The notes under the pieces: generated by a model
The model's database searches: none
What the model was told of the DNA's origin: nothing
Seen by the model: the letters and a program-made list of their open reading frames with translations, nothing else
Translations under genes and position numbers: made by a program
Assembly: GCA_016192455.1 (NCBI GenBank)
Contig: JACPUC010000015.1
Location: forward strand, 62,001-99,922
Length of the DNA: 37,922 nt
Direction: 5' to 3'
Source: Candidatus Tectimicrobiota bacterium
Lineage (GTDB): Bacteria; JACPUC01
In this document: positions 2,621-33,837 of the stretch, one piece after another
How the letters are laid out: each line of letters begins with the position of its first letter
How positions within the stretch are numbered: position 1 is the first letter of the stretch

Positions 2621-2697
<77 letters not shown>

Positions 2698-15700: not shown

Positions 15701-15789
15701 CCGCCTCCCTGGTCGTTCCCGGCAGCGACTCGGCCCAGGCGAGGAACATCCTCGCCAGCGACAGCGCCGTCTTCGAGGTGGGCCAGTAG
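12751..15789 (+). CDS. Secreted proline-rich protein, paralog of the upstream Ig-repeat protein
   Basis: Likely GTG start at 12751 (VKFWSVLAVILLITWGG...VAA|QE). Long Pro/Gly-rich region, then the same architecture as the upstream gene, with an ADLYV C-terminal domain. Confidence 0.8.
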   Translation: MKFWSVLAVILLITWGGASMVSGPPPVAAQEPLPPPPGGLLPPPPGGLLPPPPGGLLPPPPGGLLPPPPGGLLPPPPGGALPPPPGGAPLPGGAPPPGGQPPGPGAPLPGGGGPLPPTGLPPPPPRGGFPSPELLGGGLPLFPPPPGPGGQPLPGGPLPGMPGEGPPPAGFAPGAIPPGAGRPPAVFAPPGLFPGGPPVEFRLPQPHLEVAVPRDLFLPAGERPMLPAGLEIPGRFMVPEALLTEQGRVRPEFFALPPRLTLPPAFVNAENTVRPEVFVYPAGFIPPAGARLPRDFFGPERMPGREAPERVERVQAVRGTVTVAGAPFAGARVRLEPGEVLATTGPDGRYFAAVAEPGTFSVHLSLDTQRHDLVTLVAPSGIAPPGAPRQFVELRRDAVVVAENDTVAIDFALFPERSQQLLDQPLQELEVQPRSATLTGGEEQTFSAAHGTGTYRWHATLGSFSSTSDAATTYTAPASAGTHFVIVSDTAGNVAMARVEVTNPLTITPRRSTVALGETQELTVLGGLGPYVWSASAGSFSAPEGFQVTYLPPAVAGEYEVVVTDAAGKSATAAISVVLSLALTPASATLQIGESVTFTASGGTGEYRWRTSAGEVEPLTGEQTTYTAPQLVSTQSLIVTDSAGSSAVAVIAVSSGTLRVTPALANLGFQASQAFSATGGVPPYAWTVASGGLSATESAEGEEVTYTAPSVAGVYEINVTDRAGNAGLASVNVNRALRISPAAAVVERGGTSSFTALGGSGTYTWSTTGGELSALSGSPVTYTAPDLSGKENIILADTAGSVVTAVVEVIEAPLPSPDRLILGPQESSRLSVAGGRAPYTWHAESGDLSATSGDSIIHTGPVLSGSYFVTVIDSEGVASQVPVNIVSGASLVVTPNQERYAAGELLEIIVTTLGRGVADLYVRVELPAGTPVSITELNEFSVPDVSLPFGSPVLLVPVAQETTIISVPLPETLVGALAGEYRVTASLVVPGSDSAQARNILASDSAVFEVGQ
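12847..13014 (+). repeat. Coding tandem repeat, 7 x 24 bp (LPPPPGG[L/A])
   Basis: Unit CTGCCGCCGCC(G/T)CCCGGTGGG(CTG/GCG) repeated head to tail with no spacers. Confidence 0.95.
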
Positions 15790-19700: not shown

Positions 19701-20291
19701 GGCGAGCACCAGATGCACATCAACCCGCAGGCCGCCAAGGACCTCGGCCTCGAGGACGGCGACTACGTCTACGTGGATGCCAATCCCGCCGACCGTCCGT
19801 ACCTCGGCCACTCTCCCCAAGACCCCTTCTACAAAGTGGCGCGGCTGATGCTGCGGGTGCGGTACAACCCCGCTTACCCATACCACGTCCTCATGATGAA
19901 GCACTCGCCGTTCATGGCCACCGAGCGCAGCGTCAAGGCCCACGAGACGCGGCCCGACGGGCGCGCCCTCTCCGCCGACACCGGCTACCAGGCGAACCTG
20001 CGCTACGGATCGCACCAGAGCATCACGCGCGACTGGGCGATGCCGATGCACCAGACGGACAGCCTCTTCCACAAGGCCAAGGTGGCGATGAGCTTCATGT
20101 TCGGCGGCGAGGCCGATAACCACGCCATCAACACCGTTCCCAAGGAGACCCTGGTGCGCGTCGTGAAGGCCGAGCCGGGGGGGCTGAACGGCAAGGGGGC
20201 GTGGCTGCCGGCGACCACGGGCAATACTCCCAGCCACGAAAACGCCTTCATGAAGCGCTACCTCGAGGGTGACCTGATCCGCAGCGTCTAG
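16758..20291 (+). CDS. nxrA: Periplasmic nitrite oxidoreductase / nitrate reductase alpha subunit (type II DMSO reductase family, NXR-like)
   Basis: Tat signal GLTRRSFFQ; FS0 motif CSPNDTHAC...PRGC; RGGMGLLGVIGKYGMYRF and GGRNWSNYTWHGDQAPG (Mo-ligand Asp region); TPKTRHRVHSQW; NHAINTVPKET. Reaction direction is not determinable from sequence. Confidence 0.88.
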   Translation: MTEEQKSSQASSGSGLTRRSFFQASGGLVAGLAALTTGGALRSKPALAARTLIPVSQQQNPLESYPNRVWEHVYLDQYSYDSTFAWVCSPNDTHACRLRSFVKNGVVLRSEQNYDSHRLTDLYGNQATRAWHPRGCGKGQTMHRRVYGPFRLKYPTVRRGWKAWADAGFPSLSDNPELRDTFKFTSRGTDTFVRLSWEEAFDYIARGAVAVAQTYSGVAGRRRLLADGYQAEMVEETQGAGTRTMKLRGGMGLLGVIGKYGMYRFANMLALLDTHVRGVGPDKALGGRNWSNYTWHGDQAPGQPFVHGLQASDCDFNDMRNTKLHVQVGKNLVENKMPDSHWFIETMERGAKIVVISPEYSPPSTKADYWISVRPGLSDTAIFLGITKYLMDKKLYDEPFVKQFTDFPLLVRADTLKRLKAAEVFPSYKPGLGKDGPSYTIQNLADDQYAKLGDFVVVEKKDGKLKAITRDDIGQRMLQKGIDPLLSWKGKVKLVNGSEVEVMTLWDMYVVHLRDYDLDTVAEICGAPKALIERLANDIATIKPVAIHIGEGINHWFHATLHNRATYLPLMLTGNIGKPGAGCHTWAGNYKAALFQSAPWSGPGFKGWVAEDVFDPLLDAGASGKDIKVKGRAKDEEPAYWDHGDQALIVETPKYGRKNFTGASHMPTPTKFLWFNNVNLFNNAKWAYGVLKNVNPKIDLIVNQDIEITATGEYSDFNLPANSWMEFQVPEITASCSNPFLQIWGGKGIKPLYDSKDDVLIIAGVAKRLGEVLGDARFADYWKFVLEGRPEVYMQRLLESSTTTAGYTVQDINAGKYGEPGAALMLFRTYPRVPFWEQLQENIPFYTDTGRLHAYCDIPEAIAYGENFIVHREGPEATPYLPNVIVSTNPYIRPDNYGFTADMVQRAVLDADIRTVANNKLSWADTKKSKNPLWEQGFNFYIITPKTRHRVHSQWSMDDLHMVWDSNFGDAYRRDKRTVGTGEHQMHINPQAAKDLGLEDGDYVYVDANPADRPYLGHSPQDPFYKVARLMLRVRYNPAYPYHVLMMKHSPFMATERSVKAHETRPDGRALSADTGYQANLRYGSHQSITRDWAMPMHQTDSLFHKAKVAMSFMFGGEADNHAINTVPKETLVRVVKAEPGGLNGKGAWLPATTGNTPSHENAFMKRYLEGDLIRSV

Positions 20292-20303
20292 GCGCCGAGC
20301 TGC

Positions 20304-20330
20304 CGGGGCGCCCGCCGCCTGGGCGCCCCG
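20304..20330 (+). other. GC-rich hairpin between the alpha gene and the small ORF
   Basis: Perfect 10-bp stem CGGGGCGCCC/GGGCGCCCCG with a 7-nt loop and no U-tract; possibly an mRNA stability element. Confidence 0.45.
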
Positions 20331-20359
20331 CGCGGCGCGCCGGAGGAGGGGAGATCGCC

Positions 20360-20638
20360 ATGGCAGAGAAGGCGTTCGATCCCGAGGACCCCATGGAGCT
20401 CGTCGGCGTCGAGCTGCCGGGCTGCGACCCGGCACAGATGCTCGACGACATCGTGCAGGAGTACCTCCTCATGGGCTGGGGAGCGGCGCAGATTCTCGAA
20501 CTCTTCCGCTCCCCCCACTTCACCGCCACGCACCGGATTCTGCAGCTCATGGGCGAGCCTTACGTGACCGAACGGGTGGACCGACTTGCCGAAGCATGGC
20601 AGCAGGGTTGGCTTACCGAAGGAGAGGCAGATGGCTAA
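20360..20638 (+). CDS. Small hypothetical protein within the nxr operon
   Basis: Strong RBS GGAGGAGG; 92 aa (DPEDPMELVGV...EYLLMGW...LFRSP.F); 8-nt overlap with the beta-subunit start. Confidence 0.8.
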   Translation: MAEKAFDPEDPMELVGVELPGCDPAQMLDDIVQEYLLMGWGAAQILELFRSPHFTATHRILQLMGEPYVTERVDRLAEAWQQGWLTEGEADG

Positions 20639-21905
20639 GGTCTACAACTGGCAGATCGGCAGAGAGATGTCCTACCCCTACGAGCAGGCTGCTCCCAAGC
20701 GCCAGTGGGCGTTCGTCTTCAACATCAACCGCTGCATCGCCTGTCAAACCTGCACCTTCGCCTGCAAGGCCACCTGGACCTTCTCGAAAGGCCAGGAGTA
20801 CATGTGGTGGAACAACGTCGAGACGAAGCCGTACGGCGGCTATCCGCAGTTCTGGGACATCAAGCTCCTGACCCTGCTGGATGAGAGCCACCGCAAGGCC
20901 AACCGGCAGATGGTCTGGAACAGCGCCAAGCGGCAGGGGGAGCAGCGTCCCTACGGCACCTACGAGGGGATGACGATCTTCGAGGCCGCCGAGCAGAACG
21001 GCTTGCAGCAGGAAGTGGCCCTGGGCTACGAGCCGAGCGATGCGGAGTGGAGCGCCCCGAACATCTACGAGGACACCGCCACCGGCCTCACCAGCGCCAA
21101 GGGCGCCACAACCATCGCCTCGGGCAGCCTGCCCGAGCATAAGGCATGGTTCTTCTACCTGCAGCGCGTCTGCAACCACTGCTCGTACCCGGCCTGTCTC
21201 GCCGCATGCCCCCGCAAGGCGATCTACAAACGGCCCGAGGACGGCATCGTCCTCATCGATCAGGAGCGCTGCCGGGGCTACCGCAAGTGCGTCATGGCCT
21301 GCCCCTACAAGAAGTCGCTCTACCGCCCGACCACCCGCACCAGCGAGAAGTGCGTCGCCTGCTACCCGCGCATCGAAGGCAAGGACCCCCTCTACCCCGG
21401 CCAGCCGCTGGAGACGCGCTGCATGTCGGTCTGCCCCGGCCGCATCCGCATGCAGGGGCTGGTGAAGAAGAACGCCGACGGGAGCTGGGCCGAGGATCGG
21501 CAGAACCCGCTCTACTTCCTCGTCAAGGTCGCCAAGGTGGCCCTGCCGCTCTACCCGCAGTTCGGCCTGGAGCCGAACGGCTACTACATTCCGCCGCGCT
21601 GGGCGCCCCGCCCCTACCTGCGGCAGATGTTCGGCCCCGGCGTGGAAGAGGCCATCGCGGCGTACACCGCCCCGTCGCGCGAGCTGCTGGCGGTGCTGCA
21701 GCTCTTCCGCACCACCCAGCAGATCATCTTCCGCTACGAGATCATCGAGGGACCGAAGGTCTTCGAAACGACCATCCAAGGGAAGAAGTGGCAAATGTAT
21801 AACGACACGGTGGTGGGCTATGGCCAGGATGGCCGCGAGGTGACCCGCGTGGCGGTGGAGGAGGGGCTGCAGGTGCGTCCCAACAAACACGCCAACTCCA
21901 TCTAG
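20631..21905 (+). CDS. nxrB: NXR/Nar beta (Fe-S) subunit
   Basis: MAKVYNWQIGREMSYPY start; CIACQTCTFAC, CNHCSYPACLAACP, CRGYRKCVMACPY, CVACYP...CMSVCPG cluster motifs; MWWNNVETKPYGGYP; LPLYPQFG. Confidence 0.92.
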   Translation: MAKVYNWQIGREMSYPYEQAAPKRQWAFVFNINRCIACQTCTFACKATWTFSKGQEYMWWNNVETKPYGGYPQFWDIKLLTLLDESHRKANRQMVWNSAKRQGEQRPYGTYEGMTIFEAAEQNGLQQEVALGYEPSDAEWSAPNIYEDTATGLTSAKGATTIASGSLPEHKAWFFYLQRVCNHCSYPACLAACPRKAIYKRPEDGIVLIDQERCRGYRKCVMACPYKKSLYRPTTRTSEKCVACYPRIEGKDPLYPGQPLETRCMSVCPGRIRMQGLVKKNADGSWAEDRQNPLYFLVKVAKVALPLYPQFGLEPNGYYIPPRWAPRPYLRQMFGPGVEEAIAAYTAPSRELLAVLQLFRTTQQIIFRYEIIEGPKVFETTIQGKKWQMYNDTVVGYGQDGREVTRVAVEEGLQVRPNKHANSI

Positions 21906-21936
21906 TTCACCCACTCAATCGCGAGGAGCCGCTGTC

Positions 21937-22650
21937 ATGGGTGCCCCTGAGTCGGCGATTGCTCGAAGCGCCACCTACGACCTCCTCTCCTTGGCCTTCC
22001 TGTACCCGGAGGCGGGTCACCTTGACCATCTGCGCGAGGCCGTGCCGCAGCTCCAGGAAGCCGCCGGCGAGATTGGCTGGGACGACGTGGCGCGGGCCCT
22101 GCGAGGGCTCGGCGCCGAGCTGCGCACGGCGACGCGGGAGGCCCTCGAGACCGAGTTCGCCGAGGTCTTCGGGCACGGTATTCCGAAGGACTGCCCCCCT
22201 TACGAGGGAGAGTACAACCAGGCGCATATCTACCAGAAGGTGCAGACGCTGGCCGAGCTGAAAGGGGTCTACGAGCATTTCGGCCTGGCACCCAATCCCG
22301 ACCTCAAGGATCGCCCCGATCACATCAGTGTGGAGCTGGAGTTCATGCAGGCGCTCACCGCCAAGGAGGCGTACGCCCGGCTCCAGAACCATGGCGACGA
22401 CAAGATCAGCCTCTGCCGTGAGGCCCAGAAGTGCTTCCTTGAGCAGCACCTGGCGGGCTGGACCCGCCGCTTCGCCAGGGCGCTGGCCGGCAAGACGCAG
22501 CGCCAGGGGGTCTACGGGGCGCTCGCCCTGCTGCTGGGAGCCTACATGGAGCGTGAGCTCCAGGAGTTCGGGCTGACGCCGTCGCTCCTCCCCGTCCTGA
22601 CGGACATCGAGGAGGAGGGCGATGCCGGCTGTCCCGGTTGCGACGCCTGA
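21937..22650 (+). CDS. TorD/DmsD/NarJ-family chaperone (delta subunit)
   Basis: CPPYEGEY, DRPDHISVELEFM and FLEQHLAGW motifs; position in the molybdoenzyme operon. Confidence 0.9.
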   Translation: MGAPESAIARSATYDLLSLAFLYPEAGHLDHLREAVPQLQEAAGEIGWDDVARALRGLGAELRTATREALETEFAEVFGHGIPKDCPPYEGEYNQAHIYQKVQTLAELKGVYEHFGLAPNPDLKDRPDHISVELEFMQALTAKEAYARLQNHGDDKISLCREAQKCFLEQHLAGWTRRFARALAGKTQRQGVYGALALLLGAYMERELQEFGLTPSLLPVLTDIEEEGDAGCPGCDA

Positions 22651-22704
22651 CGATGATCCCGGCGACGATCCCGAGAACGAACGCAGCTCAGAAAGGGCGC
22701 TACG

Positions 22705-23613
22705 ATGAATCTGGCAAAGTTCTGGATGAGCAGACGGACGGTGCTGGCGGGCGGGACGGCGGCACTCCTCTCGCTGGCCGGCCGCCTGTGGCTGCGCTCG
22801 GCGCGCGCCCAGCAGACGGCGAGCGGCATCACGGCCGCGCCGGTGAGCAGGGTGCCGCTGGCCCCCGAGGATGCGCTCTGGGGACGGGCGAAGCCCACGC
22901 CGGTGGTGCTGCTGCCGCAGAACCTCGTGCTGCCGCGATTGGCGAAGTCGAACCTGCAAGCCCTGAACGTCCAGGCGCTCTACGACGCCGCGCGTCTCGC
23001 CGTGCGCCTCGAGTGGCCGGATGCCCACAAGGATGACGAGCTGGGCACAGTGCAGCAGTACCGCGACGGCGTCGCCATCCAGTTTCCGGTGAACCCGGCC
23101 GGCTCCGCGCCCTCCTTCATGATGGGCCAACCGGGGAGCGGCGTGGTCATCTACCACTGGAAGAGTGACTGGCAGTTCAGCCTGACCTACGACGTGGACG
23201 AAGCCTACCCAAACATGTACGCCGACTACTACCCCTTCTCCGGGGTTGCGGCCGGGGAGATGCCGGAGGCCACCGATTACCTGACGAAGGGCCGCCGGGA
23301 GTACCTGACCGCGGCCGCGGTCGGCAACAGCTTGGCGGACCCCTTCGTCCAGAAGCGGATCGGACCGATCCAGAAGATGCGCGCGGAGGGCTTCGGGACG
23401 ACGGAGGCTGACCAGGTGCAGGACGCGCAGGGCGGCGGCGTCTGGTCCTCCAAGGGATGGCGGATCGTCATCTCCATCCCGCTCAAACAGAGCGCCTTCA
23501 CCTTCGCCAAGGGCATGACGGTGCCACTTGCCTTTGCCGTGTGGGACGGCGCGGACCGGCAGCGGAACGGCCAGAAGACTTACGCACCCTGGATGAATTT
23601 GGTGCTGGCGTAG
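22705..23613 (+). CDS. nxrC: Heme b gamma subunit (ethylbenzene dehydrogenase gamma / NxrC-like)
   Basis: Tat-like SRRTVLAGG...ARA|Q; AVRLEWPD, YRDGVAIQFP, SFMMG (candidate Met ligand), AFAVWDG...RNGQK (candidate Lys ligand). Confidence 0.82.
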   Translation: MNLAKFWMSRRTVLAGGTAALLSLAGRLWLRSARAQQTASGITAAPVSRVPLAPEDALWGRAKPTPVVLLPQNLVLPRLAKSNLQALNVQALYDAARLAVRLEWPDAHKDDELGTVQQYRDGVAIQFPVNPAGSAPSFMMGQPGSGVVIYHWKSDWQFSLTYDVDEAYPNMYADYYPFSGVAAGEMPEATDYLTKGRREYLTAAAVGNSLADPFVQKRIGPIQKMRAEGFGTTEADQVQDAQGGGVWSSKGWRIVISIPLKQSAFTFAKGMTVPLAFAVWDGADRQRNGQKTYAPWMNLVLA

Positions 23614-23912: not shown

Positions 23913-25643
23913 TCAGAGGTACGGTTTGCCGCCGGAGATGAAGGTGCCCATGACGTTCCCCCTGGTGATCGGCAGCAGCAGGTGCGAGGGATGCTCCGCG
24001 TTGTGGTGCACGGTGATGCGTGACGCCGAGGCGCGGTGCAGGTGACCCGAGGCCAGCGCTTCGAGCGGGTGCTTGGGTGGGTCGTCAGTGCAACTGATCT
24101 TCAGCACCAGCCTTGATCCAGGCTTGCAGAGAGTGCAGGTGGGAACGAGCGGGATGGTGAACTCCGTCACCTCTCCGGGGGTGAGCGGCTCGGGCTGCGT
24201 GTGCGGGAAAAACGGCGCCCAGGGTTTGGAGCGCTGCGGGTCGAGGCGTCGATGCGAGCCGCGCAGCCAGCCGCGCGTCAAGATGCGCTCCTGCCCCGCC
24301 GCGTCCACGGCGCGCAGGCTGATGAACCAAAGCGCCTCGGGAGCCGTGCTGGAGGCGAACAGCTTGAGCACGATGGGGCCGATGACCTCCGTCTGCTCCA
24401 CGAAGAGGGGGGTGGAAAACTCCAGGCTGCCGCGTCCCCATGGCGAGTCTTCAAACGAGGTCGTCCCCTCGTTCGGCCAGTGCTCGCGCTCGAAGAGGAC
24501 GCCCCCTTCGTGCAGGTGGAAGGGAGTCCATTTCGTTTCCGGCAGAGGCCACTCGTTCGCTTCCTTCCAGGTTCCCTCGCCGGGGATAAAGAGCCTGATC
24601 GGCGGCTCCTGCAGAATCCCCGTCTCGATCCCTTTCAGCCAGAAATCGAACCAGCGCAGCGACTCGTACTGGAGCTGGTAGAGAGGGCGGTCCAAGTACG
24701 CCGGCGGGCCGATCACCAGCTTCTTGGGGACGCTCAAGTTCTCCCAGCTCCGGAAGGCTCCGGGCAGGTGCAGGCCGTAGATGCCCCAACAGGCGCCCAG
24801 GTACGCCGGCACGTTGATGGTCGGGTAGTTTACCCGGCGCTCCTCCCAGTACGGGCCATCGCAGGGGTTGAGCAGCAGGTCCACCAGGAGGGGATTCATC
24901 CCCTGCTCGGGGTTGCGCAGGATCGCCGCCAGTTCAGGCACGCGGGTGATGTCCTCATCCCGCAAGCACGCCGCGATGGCCTGTCCAAACGCCTCCTCGC
25001 CGAGGCGTTGCCGCGTCTCGCTCGCCACCCTGGCCTTGTAGAGCGAGCCATACGCCCACATGCGCCAGAAACCGTGACCGAGGATGCCGCCGTGATAGAC
25101 GGAGTCGCGGTAAAGGTCCGTGGCTCCCCAGGGGGCGAAGATGCACTTCAGGTGGGGTGGATTGAGCGAGGCGATGAAGAACTGAATCCAGGCGAAATAC
25201 GACACCCCGAACATGCCGACCTGGCCGTTGCACCAGGGTTGCCGTGCCATCCACTCGATGAGCTCGCAGCCATCCTCGATCTCGCGGCGGGCAAGAAAGG
25301 GGTAGATGCCGCCCGAGTTGCCGGTTCCCCGGATATTGGCGATGAGGTAGGCGTAACCGCGGCGCACGTAGAACGCCGGGTCGCCCGCTTCGATATAGGC
25401 GGTCCCTTCTTCCTGATTGGCATGCCGAAAGATGTTGATGGAAAGGGCCGCAGGCTTTATCGGTGCGGTTTGCGAGGCTTGATTATACGGATGATAGCCC
25501 AGGATGGCGGGAAAAGGTCCGGCTGCGTCGGGCCGGAAAATATCGGCATCGAGTTCGATACCGTCACTCATGGGAATCTTTACGGAGCGTTCCACCACCA
25601 CGCCGTACGCGCGTTCCGACGTTGTCCATGCAGTGCTAAACAT
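23913..25643 (-). CDS. CocE/NonD family hydrolase, copy 2
   Basis: MSDGIELDADIFRP, NIRGTGNSGG, QPWCNGQVGMFGVSYFA, EVIGPI and LTRGWLRGSHR motifs; evident paralog of 7447-9081. Confidence 0.92.
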   Translation of the reverse strand: MFSTAWTTSERAYGVVVERSVKIPMSDGIELDADIFRPDAAGPFPAILGYHPYNQASQTAPIKPAALSINIFRHANQEEGTAYIEAGDPAFYVRRGYAYLIANIRGTGNSGGIYPFLARREIEDGCELIEWMARQPWCNGQVGMFGVSYFAWIQFFIASLNPPHLKCIFAPWGATDLYRDSVYHGGILGHGFWRMWAYGSLYKARVASETRQRLGEEAFGQAIAACLRDEDITRVPELAAILRNPEQGMNPLLVDLLLNPCDGPYWEERRVNYPTINVPAYLGACWGIYGLHLPGAFRSWENLSVPKKLVIGPPAYLDRPLYQLQYESLRWFDFWLKGIETGILQEPPIRLFIPGEGTWKEANEWPLPETKWTPFHLHEGGVLFEREHWPNEGTTSFEDSPWGRGSLEFSTPLFVEQTEVIGPIVLKLFASSTAPEALWFISLRAVDAAGQERILTRGWLRGSHRRLDPQRSKPWAPFFPHTQPEPLTPGEVTEFTIPLVPTCTLCKPGSRLVLKISCTDDPPKHPLEALASGHLHRASASRITVHHNAEHPSHLLLPITRGNVMGTFISGGKPYL

Positions 25644-26042: not shown

Positions 26043-26360
26043 TCACGCCGGCTCGCCGCGGCCGAGGCGTCCCCCCTCGTGTTCATAGATTTCATGCCTT
26101 GGTCGGCTGGCGAGGATATTCTCCTTGCCCCAATTCGTCACCTTGGCGAACTGCTCGGAGCGGATGAACGACTCGAAAGCCGTCCTGTCGGTCCACGCCG
26201 AGACGATCAGGTAGGAGCGCGGGTGGTTGACATCGCGGTAGAGATGCGAGGCGGTGTGGCCGCTCATGCTCTTCATGATTTCGAGCACGCGATTGAAGGC
26301 ACGTTCAAAGGTCCCCTCTTTCCCTTCCAGGATTTCGTAGTTCATGCCGACGGTGATCAT
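26043..26360 (-). CDS. Antibiotic biosynthesis monooxygenase (ABM) domain protein
   Basis: 105 aa; ...GKEGTFERAF...GHTASHLYRDVNHPRSYLIVSAWTDRTAFESFIRSEQF pattern; GGAG RBS. Confidence 0.85.
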   Translation of the reverse strand: MITVGMNYEILEGKEGTFERAFNRVLEIMKSMSGHTASHLYRDVNHPRSYLIVSAWTDRTAFESFIRSEQFAKVTNWGKENILASRPRHEIYEHEGGRLGRGEPA

Positions 26361-27244
26361 CGGAGCTCCTTTGGGCGATGGCGCTGGTGTCGTTCCGTCG
26401 TTTTCTCCAGGGTGTTGCAGTCACGGCTGATCGCGCACCGCATCCTAGCATGTCGCTCGCCGCATTTCGAGGCGACGAGGCCGACGGCCCCGGCTCGTGG
26501 TGGCGGGATGCCGGGAGCGCTGCGTTCTACGTGGTCGATACGGGTCGGCCGCGGCTACCCACTCGAGGGAGGCGCTCCCTCCGTCTGGACGTCTGGCAGC
26601 TCTCCCACGACCGAGGACCTCTGGCGCCGCTCCTCCGCGGCGCTTTGGTCAGGCGCCAAAGGGGCTAAGCAGGTTGCCATGCGCACGCTGCCGAGGAGAC
26701 GCGAACGGGCTTGTGGTCGCCGCCGGAGAGGATTCGCGCAGACGGCGGCGAAACTTACCTGCCGAATATCATGGCTGGGAGCGTGGCGGAAAGCACGGCA
26801 TGGGGGAAGCTGCGCAACGGGGGAAACTCTGCCTGGGGACGAGAGCGTAAGGCGCGGCGGCAGGGGGGGTGGGAGGAGGAATCGGCGCGCTGATGTCGCT
26901 GGCGGTGGTCAACAAGCTCAGCAGCGAGGCCTGTCGTTCTTTCTCGGTGTCACGCAAAAGAGCTTTCTGGGCAGGTCACCTCTCTCAAATTCAAGAACGT
27001 CAAGCATCTCAGAGTCTGTTGAAAGTTGTTTGACGGTTCTCTCTACTGAAAAAACGAACAACGCCCCCCCCTCTCGTACCTGTCTACGCCATGGTGACGT
27101 TCCTGGAGGGATTGCCTCGAAGTGCGCCCCCCGTCGAGAACGCAGGCCCTCTCTCCTGACCACTCGCCCCCCTCGCTGCTTGCCCTTCATCACCAACAGA
27201 GCCGGCAAGCTGGCGCGTCCACGGTTCGGGGGCGGGTAGGCCGG

Positions 27245-27475
27245 CTAGGAGCTGCCGCCGAACGATCCGCCCATGCCGCCGCCCATCATACCCATGCCCA
27301 TCTGTGCATATGCCTCAGGAACAACCTTGAAGGAGCGGATGCTGGGGCGGTGGTAGGCCAGCAGGAATGCCGCCGCGCCGATGCCGAGGTGCTTGAAGAG
27401 ATCGCGGCGTTCCACTCCCTCTTGGGGGGTATCGCCCTGCGCGTCACGCGCTTCACCCTTGGGGAACTGATCCAT
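27245..27475 (-). CDS. 76-aa precursor-like peptide B with twin-arginine leader
   Basis: ATG at 27475 after AGGAGG. MDQFPKGEARDAQGDTPQEGVERRDLFKHLGIGAAAFLLAYHRPSIRSFKVVPEAYA|QMGMGMMGGGMGGSFGGSS. Paralog at 28976-29206. Confidence 0.82.
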   Translation of the reverse strand: MDQFPKGEARDAQGDTPQEGVERRDLFKHLGIGAAAFLLAYHRPSIRSFKVVPEAYAQMGMGMMGGGMGGSFGGSS

Positions 27476-27654
27476 CGTGAGAACCTCCTGTCCCCGCAAC
27501 CACTGGGCCGCCATCCCTAAAGATATTCGAGATATTCCAGCGCCGGCCTGCCTCCTGTGCACCTGTCACGTGGCGAGGTGGCCCCCCTTTGGTCACTGCA
27601 AGGAAGCAAGCTGCGTTTACCCCGGCAAGGGTGCGCGCGCCTCCTGGGATCGCT

Positions 27655-28578
27655 TCAGGGGACCGGCGCGCCACAGCTTGCAAGTGTCGCTCTGATGGAG
27701 CTCACCCCTTCTTCCAGCGACGCCATCGTGAGCTCATAGCCAGGCAGCGCGTGAGCCACATCGATGAGGGCGCAGAGGCGCTCCGTGGTCCGTTCCTCGA
27801 GGTTCATCCCCTCCTGAGTCAGCCGCTCGAGGACCTCGGCCGGATCAAGGGCGCGCAGGCGCGTTCGCTCCTCTGGCGCATACCTGGGGAAGAAAAGCAG
27901 CGACGGCTTCGCCCGCGCGCCAGGGCTCAGTTGGCGGTAGGAAGCGGGATCGACTACGTAGCGCCGCTTGCCGTCGAACTTGGTATGCGAGAAACATACC
28001 GCGGCCGCGGGCCAGAAAGCGCGCAGCGAGGCGAGAACGTCCTCCCGCAGCAGGAAGCTGCGCTGGAAGGGGATGAGGGAGAGGCGCGCCACGTCGAGAA
28101 AGATCAACTCTTCCGAGACCAGCACAAACCCCAGGGATGCCAAGCCGGCCAGGAGCGTTGATTTTCCCATCCTCGGCGGGCCGATGAGGAGGAGCGTTTG
28201 CCGCCCGTTCGTCATCGCTCCCCCATGGAGATGCACGCAATCGCCGCGCCTCGTGGCGGCGTGCGCCCCGAAGGATCGGTCCACCTTGTAGAGGGCTTCA
28301 TCCAGATTCGGCTTCACGTGCAATTGCGAGCCGGCATCGATGACCCGCCACTCGGCGCCATTCGAGGTGTGGTGCACGGAAAAAGTAGGGAGCTGGGCCC
28401 GGGCGCTCTCCGCCCGGTCGCCGTTGCGATCACCATTCTGGTCGCCATGATCGCTGACGCGCGCGTAGTAGAGCTGGGACAACCGCGCCAAGAACTCCGC
28501 GCTGTTGGTGCGCAACTCAACCTTGCACCCGGCGAGCCAGAAGATCGCGCAACTCTGCCCCTCTTGCCGTTTCATCAT
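27655..28578 (-). CDS. HPr kinase-like P-loop protein, copy 2
   Basis: HLHGGAM...LLLIGPPRMGKSTL (Walker A)...LVSEELIFLD; paralog of 30468-31325. Confidence 0.8.
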   Translation of the reverse strand: MMKRQEGQSCAIFWLAGCKVELRTNSAEFLARLSQLYYARVSDHGDQNGDRNGDRAESARAQLPTFSVHHTSNGAEWRVIDAGSQLHVKPNLDEALYKVDRSFGAHAATRRGDCVHLHGGAMTNGRQTLLLIGPPRMGKSTLLAGLASLGFVLVSEELIFLDVARLSLIPFQRSFLLREDVLASLRAFWPAAAVCFSHTKFDGKRRYVVDPASYRQLSPGARAKPSLLFFPRYAPEERTRLRALDPAEVLERLTQEGMNLEERTTERLCALIDVAHALPGYELTMASLEEGVSSIRATLASCGAPVP

Positions 28579-28975
28579 CGAGGAGAACGCTTCTCAAGCA
28601 ACAACCCCAATCGCCTTTCGAAGACTCCTACAGTAGTGCGAGATAAAGCAATCGTCCTCAGGAATAAGTAGAACAACTCCGCTTATCTATAGACCCGCCT
28701 TTGGTTGTCAAGGAAATCGATGCGCCCCATGAAGAGCGCCGCGCGTGCGGCCAGGTGGCGGGTGGTTGAACTCCCTGGAGCGACACCTACCCTCCGCGGA
28801 AGCAGACGGCTCGCCAGCCGGACACACCACCTCCGCCGCGCCGCGGCACACTCCCCGAACCGCCGGCGCTACGTCACCCCTCCCCTCGCTTGGCAGCTTC
28901 TGTCTGGCCAGAGGGCCGAAGCAGGCATGCCGAGGGGGCCTCGACGACGAGCCGTGGAGGCGCCGAGATGCTCCG

Positions 28976-29206
28976 TCAGAACCCCATGTGCATGTTCTGC
29001 TGGCCGTGTCCGAACGAGCTCTTGCCGGGGTGATCCTGCGCCATGGCCCCCGGCGCGACCCTGAAAGTACGGATCGACGGTGGATGATAGACGAGGAGGA
29101 ACGCCCCCGCGCCGGCGCCGATTGCTTTGAGGAGGTCGCGGCGCCCCAGTCCGGAGGCAGGTTTCTCCTCTCCCTGACTTTCTGTCACACCCTCGTACGG
29201 TTCCAT
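28976..29206 (-). CDS. 76-aa precursor-like peptide A with twin-arginine leader
   Basis: GAGGGA RBS. MEPYEGVTESQGEEKPASGLGRRDLLKAIGAGAGAFLLVYHPPSIRTFRVAPGAMA|QDHPGKSSFGHGQQNMHMGF. Starts 33 nt after the methyltransferase stop. Confidence 0.85.
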   Translation of the reverse strand: MEPYEGVTESQGEEKPASGLGRRDLLKAIGAGAGAFLLVYHPPSIRTFRVAPGAMAQDHPGKSSFGHGQQNMHMGF

Positions 29207-29239
29207 TGTTTTTCCCTCGCCTGACCGCGGCGGCGGCCC

Positions 29240-30475
29240 TTAGCGGGATGCCGCGTCGCTGGTCGTTGTGGGAGTGCCGCTTCGACTCGCGGTAGGGTGG
29301 TCCCCCCCCCCGCTCCTGCCGGCAACGTCGACACGGTGGCGCAGGGTCTCCGCGAGGAGCACCCGCGCGTAGGCCTCGTCACGAACGATGTCGCCGAAAC
29401 TCGCCCGCAACTCTTCGATGATGGCCTGCGCCGCGAGACCGCGGCGACAGCCGTCAAGAACCGCCGCGTCGATCCGACCGCGCTCGTTCAGCAGCGGCCG
29501 CCAGTCATCCCCCTGCCGTCCCAGCGACTCCTCCGTGCAGAGGATTGATGCGAACGAGTCATGGTTGCGGACCGCTACCACCGTTGGAGACGCCGCCCCG
29601 TCCGAGGATCGAAGCTGCCGCACCCTCCACTTCCAGATTATGTCGATCCAGGGAAAAGTTGCAAGCTCGACATGCAAACGATCTCCCGCCGCCGCGGCGA
29701 GGGGTGGGGAGATCGGAAAGAAGGCTTGCTGCCATGCGGTCGCCGTGAACTGCGGGTGGTTCGAGAGGACAAGGCCCTCAAGGAGGCGCAAATCGAACCA
29801 CCCCAGCAGACCATGCACCTCGGCGGCGCGCGGCACCTCGAAGCTCAGGCTGGCGGAGAAGTGCCCCGTGGTCGCCTCGCGCAGGCGCAGGCGATGAACC
29901 TCCCCCGGCGTCGCCACCAGCTCGGCGGCGGAAAATGCCCGGTAGATCGGCTTGCCGTAGATGGTGGCGAGCAGCGGCTGCGGCTCGATTCCCAGCTTGC
30001 TCACCAGCCGCACGGGGCGCTCAAGCTCGGCGTAGAACTCCGGGGTGCTGACCGGCGCCATGAAGAGCACCACCTCCTCGGGGAGGAACTTCCCCGTCGG
30101 CTTCAGAAGCCGCTCCCGGCAGCCGAGGATGACCTCGTCAACGGAGGCGTGCAGAAAAAAGGGGTCGAAGTGCTCCGTCACCAGGAGATCGACCGGCTCC
30201 GGCAGGCGCACCGAGCGCGCATCCTCCTGCACGAAGGTGATGCGCTCCGCCCAGCCATTGGCCCGCGCCAGCTCGCGGGCCTTGCCGATCACGTCGTGCG
30301 GCTCGATGGCATAGACGCGCTCGGCGCCCGCAGCGCAGGCGAAGAAGGCGAACGTCCCCAGCCCCGTGCCGATCTCGGCGACGGTCTGGCCGCGCAAGTC
30401 GAGACGCTGGAAGGCCTCGCGGAAAGCGCCCAGCCGGCGCTCGTCCTGCCACATGCGCAAATAGTACTCAAGCAT
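29240..30475 (-). CDS. PRMT-fold SAM-dependent methyltransferase with PqqD/RRE-like C-terminal domain
   Basis: ATG at 30475 overlaps the kinase stop. YLRMWQDERRLGAFREA, VAEIGTGLG, AGAERVYAIE, VDLLVTE, RLLKPTG, HGLLGWFD, TAWQQ. Tail LNERGRIDAAVLDG...AIIEELRASF. Confidence 0.82.
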   Translation of the reverse strand: MLEYYLRMWQDERRLGAFREAFQRLDLRGQTVAEIGTGLGTFAFFACAAGAERVYAIEPHDVIGKARELARANGWAERITFVQEDARSVRLPEPVDLLVTEHFDPFFLHASVDEVILGCRERLLKPTGKFLPEEVVLFMAPVSTPEFYAELERPVRLVSKLGIEPQPLLATIYGKPIYRAFSAAELVATPGEVHRLRLREATTGHFSASLSFEVPRAAEVHGLLGWFDLRLLEGLVLSNHPQFTATAWQQAFFPISPPLAAAAGDRLHVELATFPWIDIIWKWRVRQLRSSDGAASPTVVAVRNHDSFASILCTEESLGRQGDDWRPLLNERGRIDAAVLDGCRRGLAAQAIIEELRASFGDIVRDEAYARVLLAETLRHRVDVAGRSGGGDHPTASRSGTPTTTSDAASR

Positions 30476-31325
30476 GGAGCACGCTCTCCACGCATGCCAC
30501 GGCGTCTCGCAGGGATGAGGCCGTGATCTCGTACGCGGGCGCCGACTCCGCCAGGCGCGCCAGCGCCGAGACCCCCGCGAAGCCGTGTCCCGCAAGGTTG
30601 AGCGTCTGGCTCAGGAGACGTCCAAAAACCTCCTCGAGCGGCAGCAGCTCAATCCGTCTGGCGCTCTCCGCACGGTAGGCGGGGAAGATGAGGAGGTAGG
30701 GCGCGGCGACTTCCCGTGTGGGCGCCTGCTGGAACGACCCAGGAGCCGGAAGGTAGCGGCGCGTGCCGTCATCCTTCGTGTAGGCGTAACTGAGCGTCGC
30801 CGCCGGCCACACCGCGCGCACCTCCTTGAGCGCGGCCTCCCTGATGAAGATGCCGCGTCGGAAGGGGATCACCGCGAGCCGTTCGGGGTGCAGGAAGAGC
30901 AGCTCGTCGGCCACATACTCGAAGCCGCGCCCCAGCAAGCCGGCGAGCAGCGTCGTCTTGCCGGCGCGGGGGCCTCCCAGGACGAGGATGGTGCGTCGCC
31001 CCCCGCGGCTCACCCCCCCTCCGTGGAGCTGCAACAGGTCTGGACGCGCCTCCATGGCGTACGTGCCGAAGGCAAGGTCCACCTCGTAGAGGGCTTCTTC
31101 CAGCGTCTCGGTCTGGAGACGCTGCAACTTCTGGTCCACGATGCGCCAGCGCTCACCCTTGGCGCACGCCGCTTCCGTAAGGCGCATCACCTCAATCATT
31201 GGACAATCGCATGGCTCAGGTGGTTCTCGCTCGTACTCCCCATAGAGCTGAGAGAGCCGCGCGACAAAAGATGGGCTGTTCGTCCTGAGCGCAATTTGCC
31301 GATCCGCAACCCGGAAGATCGTCAT
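30468..31325 (-). CDS. HPr kinase-like P-loop protein, copy 1
   Basis: Start at 31325 inferred from the paralog (IFRVADRQIALRTNS vs IFWLAGCKVELRTNS). QLHGGGV...LVLGGPRAGKTTL...YVADELLFL. Confidence 0.82.
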   Translation of the reverse strand: MTIFRVADRQIALRTNSPSFVARLSQLYGEYEREPPEPCDCPMIEVMRLTEAACAKGERWRIVDQKLQRLQTETLEEALYEVDLAFGTYAMEARPDLLQLHGGGVSRGGRRTILVLGGPRAGKTTLLAGLLGRGFEYVADELLFLHPERLAVIPFRRGIFIREAALKEVRAVWPAATLSYAYTKDDGTRRYLPAPGSFQQAPTREVAAPYLLIFPAYRAESARRIELLPLEEVFGRLLSQTLNLAGHGFAGVSALARLAESAPAYEITASSLRDAVACVESVLHA

Positions 31326-31620
31326 AGATGCAATCCCGTCACGCCTGACCATGCTCCCGGGTCCATGCGCCGCGACCCCCTGCCGGCCAAGTTCATGGCG
31401 GACTGGTAAGGCCACGTGGGGTCCTCACGTTCACTACATCGTACTCTCCTGTCACAACTCAATATATGGCCAATCATTCTGAGTTGGGTATCCCCCGGCG
31501 GCAAGTGATGTGACAATCGGCCCCGCGCCCCGGCGGATCACGCCTGGTCGCCTTGGCTGGCCGCCGGCACTGGCTTACAGCGGCAGCGAAGCGACGCGAG
31601 ATGGGGAACAGCAGGCAGGA

Positions 31621-32787
31621 CTACGGACGTTTCCCTGGCTGGCCGGGAGCGGGCTTCGTCGCCTTCTTTCCCCCCGGTAGGAGCTCGTACAGCCGCGCCA
31701 GCAGGTACCCCCAGGGCTGGCGGCGCAGCTTCTCGAGGTTCTCCGGCGCGGGGTGGAGGAGGAGCCGCAGGGGCCATCCCCAGCGTTGCCAGCGACGCGA
31801 GGTGGAGAGGCAGACCTCCAGCCAGGGGCCAAGGATCTCGCTGCTCCGGCCGCGCAGGGACGGCAGCATGAGCCTCGCCGCCAGCCACTCCATGAGGCGC
31901 TCCTCGATGGCGCTGAGGTGCGGAAACCTGCTGAGATCCTGAAGGACGCCGTCTGGGATGGGCACCCCAAGGAGGCGCTGGGCGAGGCGAAGGTAGAGGC
32001 GACAGTACGCGCCCACCCGGTAGGCGTTGGCGCGCTGGACGAAGGCTGGCCAGTCAAGGCGGCAGCGCTCGAGGATGGCCGCGGCGTCACAGAGACTGTA
32101 GAGGTGTCCCACGCACGCATCCATGTAGGTTGCATGCAGGGCGGCGTGCAGGAGGAGGTCTTCCGCGGCGAAGCGGCGGCCGGGCTGCGCCGCGATGAGG
32201 CAGGGCGAGGCGCGCTCCCACACCTCCCCGCTCCTGATGGCATGTCCGGGCGGGGGGCTGACGAAGGCCAGGTGCACCTCCACCGGGCTGCGCCGCTGCG
32301 GGTGCACAAAGCCGGGAAGCTGGTGCGGGGTGGTGTGAGGGCGCCGGCGCAGGGGGATGTCGGTCTTCATGACGTAGCCGAGGCTCTTCAGCAGCTCGGT
32401 TGTTCTTGCCGCATCCGGGGGGGCGATGAGGAGGTCGATGTCCTCCATGCAGCGCGTGCCGATGTCCTCATAGACGCTTTCCAGGAGGGCGGCTCCCTTC
32501 AAGACGACGACCGGGATGCGGTGCGCGGCGAGCGTCGCGAGGAGCCCCCCCAGCTCATGGAGGAGCGCGACATTGGCGCCGAGGGTGCTATAGTAGAGCG
32601 CCTCGATCTCCCGCAGGTGCTGCGGAAGAATGCGCACCGAGGGATGCGCGGCGAGGCGGCGATAGAGGAGCGGCGCAACGCGCAACGACGCCGCCAGCTT
32701 GACGACCTCCGCCGTGATCGAAAGCCGGAGGCCGGGCGGCAGCTCCCGTCGGAGAGCCTGGAGGAGGCGCCGCCTTGCCTGCTTCAT
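31621..32787 (-). CDS. Nucleotidyltransferase family protein (NTP_transf_5-like)
   Basis: ATG at 32787 after AGGAGGAG. VVVLKGAAL...Y.....R.MEDIDLLI, VEVH, EDLLLHAALHA, LCDAA motifs. Confidence 0.88.
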   Translation of the reverse strand: MKQARRRLLQALRRELPPGLRLSITAEVVKLAASLRVAPLLYRRLAAHPSVRILPQHLREIEALYYSTLGANVALLHELGGLLATLAAHRIPVVVLKGAALLESVYEDIGTRCMEDIDLLIAPPDAARTTELLKSLGYVMKTDIPLRRRPHTTPHQLPGFVHPQRRSPVEVHLAFVSPPPGHAIRSGEVWERASPCLIAAQPGRRFAAEDLLLHAALHATYMDACVGHLYSLCDAAAILERCRLDWPAFVQRANAYRVGAYCRLYLRLAQRLLGVPIPDGVLQDLSRFPHLSAIEERLMEWLAARLMLPSLRGRSSEILGPWLEVCLSTSRRWQRWGWPLRLLLHPAPENLEKLRRQPWGYLLARLYELLPGGKKATKPAPGQPGKRP

Positions 32788-33213
32788 ACCGCTCCTCCTG
32801 GCTGGCAGGCATGGCGCGGGGGCGGCCACGACGCTCCCCGCGCGACCGCCCGCTCTTTCCTCACCATGGTGAGCAGTATAGCGCAGGTTAAAGGAAAGGC
32901 GCAGGCTCGGCTCGCCGGCGCCGGTATTTTTCACTGACTCCTGGGCTCCTCCGGACCTGCTGGATTCCTGTTTCTCCTGCCAGCCCGGTGATTGGTGGTT
33001 GTCCTCCCCGCGGCGAGGCAGCAGAATGGCGCGGCGTCAAGCGCGAGCGGCAGAGCAAGCCAGGCGGGTTGAGCCAGTCGGATCGACCCATCCGCGGCGG
33101 ACTCCTGGCGAGCCTGGCGTGGACCGCCATGGCGAGCGGCAGGCCGCGGCGGCCTCTCAGTCACCATCCCGGCGGGCGACACGCCTGGGCGGCGCCCCCA
33201 AGTCGTGCGCTTC

Positions 33214-33837
33214 ATGAGCAGCCCACTCTCCCCGCCGCAGCTTATTCTGGCGAGCCGCTCGCCACGGCGCCTCAAGATGCTGCGCCAGATCGGCCTGCGC
33301 TGCCGCGTGCGCGCCGCAACCGCGGTGGATGAAACCCCGCGGCAGGGCGAACCGCCCCACGCGCACGTGCAGCGGCTCGCGCTGGCGAAGGCCAGCGAGG
33401 TGGCGGCGCGCTTCCCTCGCGCCTTCGTCCTTGGAGCCGATACCATCGTGGTGCTCGAGGGGCGCCTCCTCGGCAAGCCGCGCGATGCCGCGGACGCCGC
33501 GGCGATGCTGCGCCTCCTCAGCGGACGCACCCACGTGGTCTATACCGGTCTGGCACTGCTCCGCGCCGACCCCGCCGTCCAGGAGGTGGCCTATGCCGCA
33601 ACCCGGGTGACGTTTCGCACCCTTCACGAAGAGGAGGTTCTGGCCTACGTGGCGACCGGCGAACCCCTCGACAAGGCGGGCGCCTATGGCATCCAGGGGC
33701 GGGCGGCTCTCTTCGTGGAACGCATCGACGGCTGCTACGCAAACGTCGTGGGGCTGCCGCTGGCGCTGCTGGCGCAGCTCCTGCAACGGGTCGGCGTCCG
33801 CTGGTGGAGCCACCTGCTTGCCGAGCCTGCCACGTGA
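33214..33837 (+). CDS. maf: Maf family nucleoside triphosphate pyrophosphatase
   Basis: LILASRSPRR, VDE, LALAKA, LGADTIV, LGKP, LSGRTH, EPLDKAGAYGIQG, NVVGLPL. Confidence 0.95.
   Translation: MSSPLSPPQLILASRSPRRLKMLRQIGLRCRVRAATAVDETPRQGEPPHAHVQRLALAKASEVAARFPRAFVLGADTIVVLEGRLLGKPRDAADAAAMLRLLSGRTHVVYTGLALLRADPAVQEVAYAATRVTFRTLHEEEVLAYVATGEPLDKAGAYGIQGRAALFVERIDGCYANVVGLPLALLAQLLQRVGVRWWSHLLAEPAT

Follow-up and report, generated by a model that had tools for sequence, protein, structure and literature searches.

A cluster of six genes was analysed on the minus strand (27245-32934) of a 37,922-nt stretch of DNA from a Candidatus Tectimicrobiota bacterium (contig JACPUC010000015.1, positions 62,001-99,922), referred to below as the window. 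The cluster is small, belongs to a groundwater bacterium and probably adds phosphate and other groups to two short peptides. The reading that we prefer, with an estimated probability of about 60%, is a modification cluster of the kind that makes linear polyphosphorylated peptides (LPPs): free of a cyclase, producing linear, phosphorylated peptides that resemble RiPPs (peptides made by the ribosome and modified after translation), and using precursors in which a signal peptide of the twin-arginine translocation (Tat) type serves as the leader. The modification part of this reading is firmer than the Tat part. Its basis at the level of sequence is the gene set, the paralogy within the cluster, the anatomy of the leader, the recurrent synteny in unrelated genomes and the lack of a lasso core. 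The preliminary description of this DNA presented the system as an undescribed class, which did not hold up: a paper of May 2026 describes linear polyphosphorylated peptides made with an HPr(Ser) kinase-like (HprK-like) kinase, a RiPP recognition element (RRE) and an NTP-transferase, without a cyclase (PMC13381572; here and below, citations refer to parts of the texts cited). Rather than forming a class of its own, the cluster is a variant of the LPP or phosphorylated-lasso tailoring kind, with a leader that is new to the literature searched.

Organization of the cluster

The open reading frames (ORFs) of the cluster, in the order of transcription, are as follows.

31621-32787, minus strand: NTP_transf_5, candidate nucleotidyl/glycosyl-phosphate transferase (PF14907, E 1e-46, 160 bits, cut-off 31.2)
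30468-31415, minus strand: HprK-like P-loop kinase 1 (TIGR04352 HprK_rel_A, 99.7 bits)
29240-30475, minus strand: S-adenosylmethionine (SAM)-dependent methyltransferase with the fold of a protein arginine methyltransferase (PRMT), a C-terminal three-helix domain and a disordered tail (Pfam PRMT_C, 35.6 bits; Methyltransf_25)
28976-29206, minus strand: candidate precursor peptide A, 76 aa (ORF with the shared leader)
28579-28975: spacer of 397 nt between peptide A and kinase 2, inspected for an internal promoter or terminator, with nothing found
27655-28578, minus strand: HprK-like P-loop kinase 2, paralogous to kinase 1 (TIGR04352, 76.2 bits)
27245-27475, minus strand: candidate precursor peptide B, 76 aa (ORF with the shared leader)

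All six ORFs are present, co-oriented and in the order given in the preliminary description, and the reported overlap of 8 nt between the methyltransferase and kinase 1 (ATGCTTGA) was found as well. The overlap follows from placing the methyltransferase start at M41 of the long ORF, in agreement with a 90%-identical homologue of 411 aa. Kinase 1 likely starts at M22 (position 31352). For the NTP_transf_5 gene the ATG at 32787 was taken as the start; its ORF stays open up to a GTG at 32934. Peptide B has a GGAGG 7 nt upstream of its ATG. When 26900-33300 was scanned for consensus promoters and terminators, none of the sites listed fell within the 397-nt spacer; over the whole scanned region there were 2 promoter-like sites (0.7 ± 0.7 in shuffled sequences) and 5 terminator-like sites (4.4 ± 2.3), which is near the shuffles. 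The cluster is flanked by Maf, CysE and NifS on one side and by an ABM protein and a CocE/NonD hydrolase on the other. Genes for an Asn-synthase-like cyclase, a transglutaminase-like peptidase, a radical SAM enzyme, a YcaO enzyme or an ABC exporter, whose lack had been noted before, were found neither among nor beside the six genes nor elsewhere in the window.

Two peptides with a common leader

The two small ORFs are likely the substrates of the cluster enzymes. Both have the same layout, which from the N-terminus consists of an acidic stretch, RRDL[LF]K, about 13 uncharged residues, YH[PR]PSIR[TS]F, a short stretch closing with an AxA site, and a tail of 19-20 residues. In peptide A, RRDLLK (29126-29143) and YHPPSI (29072-29089) are followed by AMA and the tail QDHPGKSSFGHGQQNMHMGF (28979-29038); in peptide B, RRDLFK (27392-27409) and YHRPSI (27338-27355) are followed by AYA and the tail QMGMGMMGGGMGGSFGGSS (27248-27304). 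The leaders are identical at 28/49 positions (57%, E 1e-17, far beyond chance) and the sequences are unrelated afterwards, in line with the shared leader and unrelated tails described earlier. Both tails are rich in Met, His, Gly and Ser and have S-F-G in common, that of peptide B ends in Ser-Ser, and neither contains Arg.

The Tat consensus is S/T-R-R-x-F-L-K, and the first part of both leaders fits it. The stretch that ends in YHxPSIR[ST]F is of moderate hydrophobicity in both. YHPPSI and YHRPSI fit the motif [Y/W]xxPx[L/V/I/F/A], which is bound by the discrete RREs of lasso peptide systems (quoted in PMC13381572). Thus, the twin-arginine and RRE-binding motifs on which the preliminary description based its view of the leader are both present. 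A TatC is encoded in the genome (PF00902, E 7.5e-70, contig C10).

Close relatives of the peptides are few. An orthologue of peptide A (P0011) is 91% identical, has an identical tail and shares its 6.9-kb contig with genes for a methyltransferase (90% identical) and a kinase (79% identical). The sequence of peptide A was found in NCBI nr, and no match to it in 40 other genomes. A profile of the two peptides, run against 1.84e9 cluster representatives, returned nothing beyond peptide B itself and a single orthologue that is nearly identical to A. The leader family became visible only after distant members had come from kinase-anchored loci (see below).

Kinases, nucleotidyltransferase and a second locus in the genome

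The two HPr-kinase-like enzymes and the nucleotidyltransferase of the preliminary description are borne out by family assignments. TIGR04352 is the best NCBIfam match of all three kinases of this type in the genome, with scores of 99.7 and 76.2 bits for kinases 1 and 2 that lie below its curated cut-off of 200 bits; neither kinase reaches the cut-off of any curated family (TIGR04355, kinase B, 12.8 bits). The profile of the kinase family matches the HPr(Ser) kinase 3tqf (E 4.5e-6) over the HG...GxxGxGKT..L...G...v.D segment, which comprises the His-Gly and Walker-A motifs. Kinases 1 and 2 are identical at 118/305 positions (39%, E 8e-66), far beyond chance, and the homology includes the N-terminus of kinase 1. 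Each of the three kinases (n=3) has a small ORF nearby on the same strand with twin arginines and a YxxP motif. The NTP_transf_5 assignment (PF14907, E 1e-46) lies above the family cut-off, and the genome holds three such genes, including the copy in the cluster.

The third kinase belongs to a sister locus on contig C2 (C2:9274-12816; L013:5274-8817), in which a Tat-type peptide of 103 aa, a PqqD, an HprK-like kinase (97.4 bits to TIGR04352) and an NTP_transf_5 lie on the same strand, with no methyltransferase. The peptide (...TRRRFLKTGLVGIGLLPYVAPLVQSV...) contains RRRFLK...LLPYVAPLV and has a basic/acidic tail; the PqqD (E 1.3e-17) scores 32.8 against a TIGR04353 cut-off of 35. The locus is divergent from a gene for a Wza-like polysaccharide exporter.

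Some HprK-like kinases found in the searches (P0014, P0017 and P0019) carry a PqqD-like extension at the N-terminus, with a precomputed PF05402 match in P0017; such extensions indicate that RRE-kinase fusions exist in this kinase family.

Association of the leader with the enzymes in other genomes

The preliminary description proposed that homologues of the leader should occur together with the enzymes, which was found: in other genomes they adjoin an HprK-like kinase, a PqqD and NTP_transf_5, and often the same methyltransferase. TIGR04352-like proteins (E <= 1e-8) are present in 42 of 401 genomes, including that of the window, to which none of the others is related more closely than by domain. 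From 35 of the 41 other genomes, 40 kinase-anchored loci were taken (left out were G147, with a contig of 1.5 kb, the genomes with the weakest matches, G024, G084, G245, G259 and G325, and the locus G047:C86). A hidden Markov model (HMM) of the leader, built from six peptides and then refined, matched in eight of these loci in the first round and in one more in the second (9/40). The matches fall in 9 of the 21 loci with kinase and PqqD and no cyclase or B2 peptidase, in none of the 11 with cyclase or B2, and in none of the 8 with the kinase only. The nine loci come from seven genomes in six coded families.

The association was also seen when loci were anchored on the methyltransferase in metagenome contigs. 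The scan gave 108 relatives, of which 80 loci were kept; the gene counts were made with HMMs built for this work and, many of the contigs being short, are lower bounds. An HprK-like kinase was present in 46/80 loci, PqqD in 30/80 and NTP_transf_5 in 17/80; an Asn-synthase-like cyclase was present in 48/80, B2 in 21/80, either of the two in 50/80, and a typical lasso precursor (Y..P.L..YG...LT...) in 37/80. Only two of the 80 loci (L029 and L055) combine kinase and PqqD without cyclase or B2, and both hold a Tat-type small ORF that has RREFI[KR], ...[CY]xAPxI[TV]S[FL]..., a site rich in Ala and a tail that varies (full of Ser-Pro-Met in L055). Since the relatives of the methyltransferase sit mostly in ordinary lasso clusters, the enzyme set is a borrowed lasso/LPP tailoring module and not one that defines a class.

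The peptides of the C2 locus, of the nine genome loci (of which one has two copies) and of the two metagenome loci add up to 13, with peptides A and B of the window excluded. Their distance is 0-1555 bp to the kinase and 29-2080 bp to the PqqD, and 12/13 are on the strand of the kinase. The commonest gene order is peptide, PqqD, kinase, (methyltransferase), NTP_transf_5.

The leader HMM is selective. Among the 41,383 ORFs of the window's own genome, the three training peptides alone were significant (peptide A 70 bits, peptide B 71 bits); the next-best match had E 0.052 with the first HMM and 0.0091 with the refined one, and ordinary Tat N-termini stayed sub-threshold at 11.7-16.8 bits. In the whole genomes of five carriers, the 16 matches comprise six training peptides, one non-training peptide adjacent to a kinase, one broken orphan and the N-termini of eight ORFs of 397-531 aa, of which seven match in the twin-arginine part only and the eighth shows a weak, longer match (E 0.042). 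The orphan (G002:C81:34299-34430; L174:8025-8150) is apparently broken by one in-frame TGA, has no enzyme genes within 8 kb and copies the Tat-type leader of G002's own kinase locus.

These data bear on an alternative in which the small ORFs are ordinary Tat-exported periplasmic proteins, for instance Met/His-rich metal binders, and the enzymes act on polysaccharide or on another protein. We consider it improbable. The tails do resemble periplasmic Met/His metal-binding segments, the C2 locus adjoins the Wza-like exporter, LPP clusters are found in capsule loci and the substrate of LppN is unknown (PMC13381572). However, the leader holds the RRE-binding YxxPx[IV] motif, the leader family stands beside PqqD or kinase in every intact case examined, the kinase/peptide pair is duplicated as a unit in the window, and homologous kinases phosphorylate peptides in the lasso and LPP systems (PMC8498205, PMC13381572).

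Accessory chemistry varies between Tat-type loci: a radical SAM gene lies directly beside the peptide and PqqD genes in two of them (L134:1800-2903 and L143:8832-9923), a sulfotransferase occurs in L029, and L157 encodes a family-2 glycosyltransferase-TPR protein. In a different group of cyclase-free loci with kinase and PqqD (L158:1931-2499, L138, L142, L146, L148 and L159), the leaders lack the twin arginines and the peptides look like LPP-type precursors from outside the Bacillota; in L158 there are three copies in tandem, of which the third ends in Gly-Thr and the other two in Thr. The 40 lasso-type precursors that lie beside a PRMT-like methyltransferase and an HprK-like kinase (L017-L096) end in Cys-Leu in 22 cases, often after a Met-rich stretch (for example L022:10151-10330, L026:6184-6405 and L042:7740-7967), and otherwise in Thr/Ser; the conserved -CL end may be a target of the methyltransferase or the kinase in the lasso loci.

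Size and composition of the leader family

A profile of 15 members, searched against 5.8e9 proteins, yielded 31 members at E <= 0.01, within the limits of the word index of the tool. Their source names are 'hypothetical protein' or none, and no curated NCBIfam model exists for these leader peptides. The sources label the organisms as Nitrospinota, Candidatus Tectomicrobia (two), Thermodesulfobacteriota, Pseudomonadota and 'bacterium'. The family consensus reads [KR]R[DEN]F[IL][KR][KR], a hydrophobic (h-) region and [YFC]xxPx[IV]x[ST][FYL]x[IV]. An AxA site follows 10-15 residues further on in most members and, as read from the alignment, closes the leader block of peptides A and B. Many members have tails rich in Ser, Pro and Met. 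A tight subfamily (P0024, P0027, P0030, P0032-P0034, P0037, P0039, P0041-P0044, P0047 and P0049) has tails of Ser-Pro-Met repeats, most of them ending in GNPGN[IM]W[KR]; its three labelled members come from metagenome-assembled genomes of Nitrospinota and Candidatus Tectomicrobia.

The methyltransferase and its C-terminal domain

The AlphaFold2 model of the methyltransferase, made with 43 sequences, has a pLDDT of 90 and a pTM of 0.82. Residues 1-306 are modelled as a type I PRMT fold with a Rossmann domain and a beta barrel. The top Foldseek matches are PRMT6, CARM1 and PRMT3 (PRMT6 with E 2.5e-26 and a TM score, normalized to the target, of ~0.8), and the sequence profile finds PRMT6 in the PDB with E 1.7e-59. 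Residues 307-381 are predicted to form two short helices followed by three helices, with no beta strands.

The C-terminal domain is plausibly the helical half of a winged-helix or RRE-like domain, which would make the protein a PRMT-RRE fusion. Alignment of the domain with PqqD by hhalign gave a probability of 59% over 24 columns, in the segment L..DG.rt..eI..el. With VIA-align, among 48,161 chains, two lasso B1 proteins in complex with a leader (5v1u and 6jx3) and the PqqD 3g2b ranked 5, 6 and 8 with Z 5.7 (rmsd 2.7-3.1 Å, 53-56 residues aligned), a level shared with phage terminase, DpnI and other unrelated helical domains (top Z 6.5) and hence not decisive. Foldseek with the domain alone returned nothing at E <= 0.001 (TbiB1 at rank 32, E 3.3). 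A predicted complex of residues 1-386 with peptide A, run without controls, gave ipSAE values of 0.00 and 0.01, which speak neither for nor against binding. In some cyclase-free loci with a discrete PqqD (L134 and L140), the methyltransferase is ~320 aa long and lacks the C-terminal domain.

The methyl acceptor was considered separately. The twin arginines were set aside as 5/13 Tat-type loci outside the window have no methyltransferase. A tail arginine was rejected for the peptides of the window, because neither tail has an Arg.

Evidence against the proposed reading

A number of observations weigh against an LPP-like cluster with Tat-type leaders or against parts of it, and the first group concerns the Tat signal. 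The TIGR01409 Tat model scores peptide A at 16.5 (cut-off 16.7) and peptide B at 12.7, and at E <= 1 matches 6/15 members of the leader family; the Pfam TAT_signal model gave 14.6 against a cut-off of 22.7. Twelve of the 21 cyclase-free loci with kinase and PqqD have no Tat-type leader, from which it follows that Tat is not obligatory for the enzyme set, and six of these 12 have YxxPx[IV]x[ST][YF] leaders without a twin arginine. Apart from the Tat signal, peptide and enzymes of L055 are encoded on opposite strands.

These scores and RR-less leaders favour a variant in which the enzymes do modify the peptides, and the twin-arginine/hydrophobic segment is an element for recognition or membrane anchoring instead of a working Tat signal; the product would then be cytoplasmic, membrane-bound or exported by another route. 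KR replaces RR in three family members (L135, L136 and L157), and the RRE-binding motif lies inside the supposed h/c-region, so that the conservation may reflect enzyme binding alone. On the other hand, [ST]-R-R-x-F-[LI]-K, about 15 uncharged residues and AxA agree residue for residue with the Tat consensus in most members, TatC is present in the genome, and no dedicated ABC exporter or SipW-like peptidase was found beside the enzymes in the Tat-type loci examined (10 neighbouring ORFs scanned). On balance we regard a non-Tat role of the segment as unlikely, though it is the alternative to which we give the most weight.

The second group of observations concerns the enzymes. In solved RRE complexes a beta wing pairs with the leader, and the methyltransferase's C-terminal domain has no such wing; PqqD/RRE models gave no match to the six proteins at E <= 1, and a PqqD HMM gave none to the ORFs of the cluster. 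Of the PRMT-RRE fusion of the preliminary description, the PRMT fold is supported; the RRE half is no more than plausible, with three helices and no wing, 59% in hhalign and fold matches tied with unrelated domains. PRMTs have two glutamates in their double-E loop, which we take to be the loop (TEH) found in the alignment with PRMT6. The first acidic residue is kept, and where the second Glu would stand both the window protein and the family consensus have Ala. As a consequence the substrate of the methyltransferase is not readable from homology, and on this sequence arginine cannot be assumed. Finally, direct searches with the two peptides alone found a single close orthologue, and the DNA sequencing runs that contain the locus are groundwater metagenomes, perhaps those from which it came, with no RNA run listed.

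Lasso machinery in the rest of the genome

The preliminary description suggested searching the rest of the genome for a lasso cyclase or a PqqD acting in trans. The search was positive for PqqD, with two genes, on contigs C2 and C18 only, and negative for B2 (0 Transglut_core3 matches in the assembly, which is 88% complete); three AsnB-like genes for proteins of 660-675 aa lie on other contigs (C15 and C7). The lasso core of cyclase, B2 and B1 is absent from the window. An orphaned lasso tailoring module, with peptides A and B as lasso precursors matured by a cyclase and a peptidase encoded elsewhere, would agree with the lasso clusters around most relatives of the methyltransferase (cyclase or B2 in 50/80 loci), with the three AsnB-like proteins and with an assembly that is only 88% complete. 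Against this, B2 was not found in the genome, the leaders of the window lack the YG....LT ending of the 40 lasso precursors found beside relatives of the methyltransferase, and a Tat-type leader occurs in 0 of 11 + 50 loci with cyclase or B2. We rate such an orphaned module as very improbable, and lasso machinery acting in trans was rejected on the lack of B2.

The second PqqD is an orphan (C18:43219-43488, 68 bits) with neither kinase nor lasso genes in its vicinity; it adjoins an unknown ORF of 220 aa, a sigma-54 activator and a multihaem cytochrome c. A SipW-like signal peptidase I was not found in the window, and the one TIGR02228 match of the genome is weak (28.2 bits, cut-off 51.85) and lies on a different contig.

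Comparison with known systems

LPPs (Popov et al., Nat Commun, May 2026; PMC13381572) are the closest relatives. A cluster encodes between one and three precursors, 35-200 aa long, whose leaders follow YxxPxVLxHQxIxFETxxS and whose C-termini vary; polyphosphorylation places up to four phosphates on Ser3 of the core, the leader is removed by a signal-peptidase-type enzyme (the SipW-like LppS), and an MsbA-like exporter (LppD) and a discrete RRE (LppB) are present (PMC13381572). The clusters lie in capsule loci and LPPs are called 'restricted to the Bacillota' (PMC13381572). The cluster of the window is similar in having no macrolactam cyclase, an HprK-like kinase (in two copies) and an NTP-transferase (PF14907), and its peptides in their number (two, within the LPP range), their YxxPx[V/L/I] leader motif and their conserved N-termini with highly variable C-termini. 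Removal of the leader by a type I signal-peptidase-type activity would be a further similarity, and the position of the C2 sister locus next to genes for polysaccharide export is comparable to that of LPP clusters in capsule loci. The cluster differs in adding a PRMT-fold methyltransferase and a duplicated kinase/peptide pair, and in a Tat-like leader (RRxFLK, h-region and AxA) that fits the LPP leader consensus in its YxxPx[V/L/I] part only; it also has no SipW-like LppS, MsbA-like LppD or discrete RRE, three features that define LPPs, and their lack is to be added to the points against the reading. The labels of the leader family (Nitrospinota, Tectomicrobia, Thermodesulfobacteriota and Pseudomonadota) contrast with the Bacillota-only LPPs. 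The words Tat, twin-arginine, signal peptide, methyltransferase and Gram-negative are absent from the part of the LPP text available, supplements aside (PMC13381572).

In the lasso systems of the paeninodin and pseudomycoidin type, HprK homologues phosphorylate the C-terminal Ser of linear precursors, sometimes repeatedly, and the nucleotidyltransferase of pseudomycoidin extends the phosphate by one or two hexoses (PMC8498205). The kinase and nucleotidyltransferase families are the same as in the window, and the PRMT-like methyltransferase and kinase also occur as a pair in environmental lasso clusters; the window differs in that cyclase, B1 and B2 are lacking and the precursors have neither the lasso leader ending nor a ring-forming core. 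The C-terminal Ser, the known target of lasso kinases, is present in peptide B only.

The HPr-rel-A system (TIGR04352 kinase A, TIGR04353 PqqD chaperone and TIGR04355 kinase B) is similar in that TIGR04352 is the best match of the three kinases and the C2 PqqD comes near TIGR04353. All scores are below the curated cut-offs, however, there is no kinase B, and the window cluster has no PqqD. No literature using the HPr-rel-A family name was found.

Tat proofreading chaperones (TorD/DmsD/NapD type) bind the Tat signal peptide in the cytoplasm until the cargo is finished. A PqqD/RRE that binds a motif inside the signal would act alike, although the folds are unrelated. Bufferins are MNIO-modified RiPPs that bind copper in the periplasm and have Sec signal peptides, which are described as rare (PMC11626156). 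They resemble the present peptides in carrying a general-secretion signal peptide instead of relying on a dedicated exporter and in giving a periplasmic product; bufferins chelate Cu and the Met/His tails here suggest a similar role. They differ in using Sec and not Tat, in their enzymes and chemistry, and in a signal peptide that is dispensable for modification. By its title, PMC13056109 deals with the lipoprotein pathway. No description of natural RiPP precursors with a Tat leader, or of a PRMT-like enzyme in such clusters, was found in the literature searched, supplements aside.

Proposed pathway

From the sequences we infer phosphorylation, nucleotidylation, methylation, Tat export and signal-peptidase cleavage, as well as the function; for phosphorylation and extension of the phosphate there are homologues studied by experiment, and the holding of the leader, the export and the cleavage are read from the sequence. 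The leader would be held in the cytoplasm by an RRE-type domain. The candidates are the methyltransferase's C-terminal domain and, acting in trans, the PqqD of C2, whose own peptide has a similar motif. Each kinase would phosphorylate a tail Ser of the neighbouring peptide, perhaps repeatedly, and NTP_transf_5 may extend the phosphate, by analogy with the hexose addition in pseudomycoidin. The methyltransferase would methylate some atom of the peptide other than a tail Arg. Tat takes post-translationally matured cargo and can carry small, unstructured, hydrophilic proteins, and the finished peptide would leave by this route. The housekeeping signal peptidase I would then cut at AxA, giving a peptide of ~2 kDa in the periplasm, so that Tat and signal peptidase I would replace the LppD exporter and the SipW-like LppS of the LPPs of Bacillota. 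It is a guess, made because of the composition of the tails and the precedent of the bufferins, that the Met/His and Ser-Pro-Met tails bind a metal (Cu) in the periplasm.

In a wider form, which we put forward tentatively and hold to be more doubtful than not, the peptides represent a widespread LPP-like branch beyond the Bacillota. A single N-terminal segment would be both a Tat signal and, with YxxPx[IV]x[ST][FY] in its h/c-region, the site bound by a PqqD-type RRE, which would act as a proofreading chaperone until phosphorylation, glycosyl or nucleotidyl extension and methylation are done; the periplasmic Met/His-rich (Ser-Pro-Met-repeat) phosphopeptides would buffer copper or similar metals. 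If the proposed reading holds, the LPP family extends well beyond the Bacillota and, as far as the literature searched goes, these are the first natural RiPP-type precursors with a Tat signal as leader, which would explain how such clusters dispense with a dedicated protease and exporter. The leader HMM would provide a simple handle for mining a peptide family now called 'hypothetical protein' or left unnamed, and a eukaryote-like PRMT-fold methyltransferase would be tied to peptide natural-product pathways, here and in many environmental lasso clusters.

Other features of the window

The two CocE/NonD (S15) hydrolases of the window lie at 7375-9081 (plus strand) and 23913-25643 (minus strand). 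The latter is on the strand of peptide B and 1.6 kb downstream of it, beyond the ABM monooxygenase (26043-26360); no link of such hydrolases to the cluster was seen in the other loci. An Rfam search over the window found two tRNAs only (2457-2528 and 2621-2694, plus strand), distant from the cluster. An Eco57I/TaqI-like N6 DNA methylase is encoded at 3754-5163 (minus strand), and two large PKD/BiPBP_C/CarboxypepD_reg proteins of the surface type at 10490-15789 (plus strand). At 16758-23613 (plus strand) lies an operon of the type II dimethyl sulfoxide (DMSO)-reductase family, with a molybdopterin subunit of 1177 aa (TIGR03479, 320 bits, below the cut-off), a subunit with 4Fe-4S and a haem subunit of the EB_dh family; the enzyme resembles nitrite oxidoreductase and ethylbenzene dehydrogenase.

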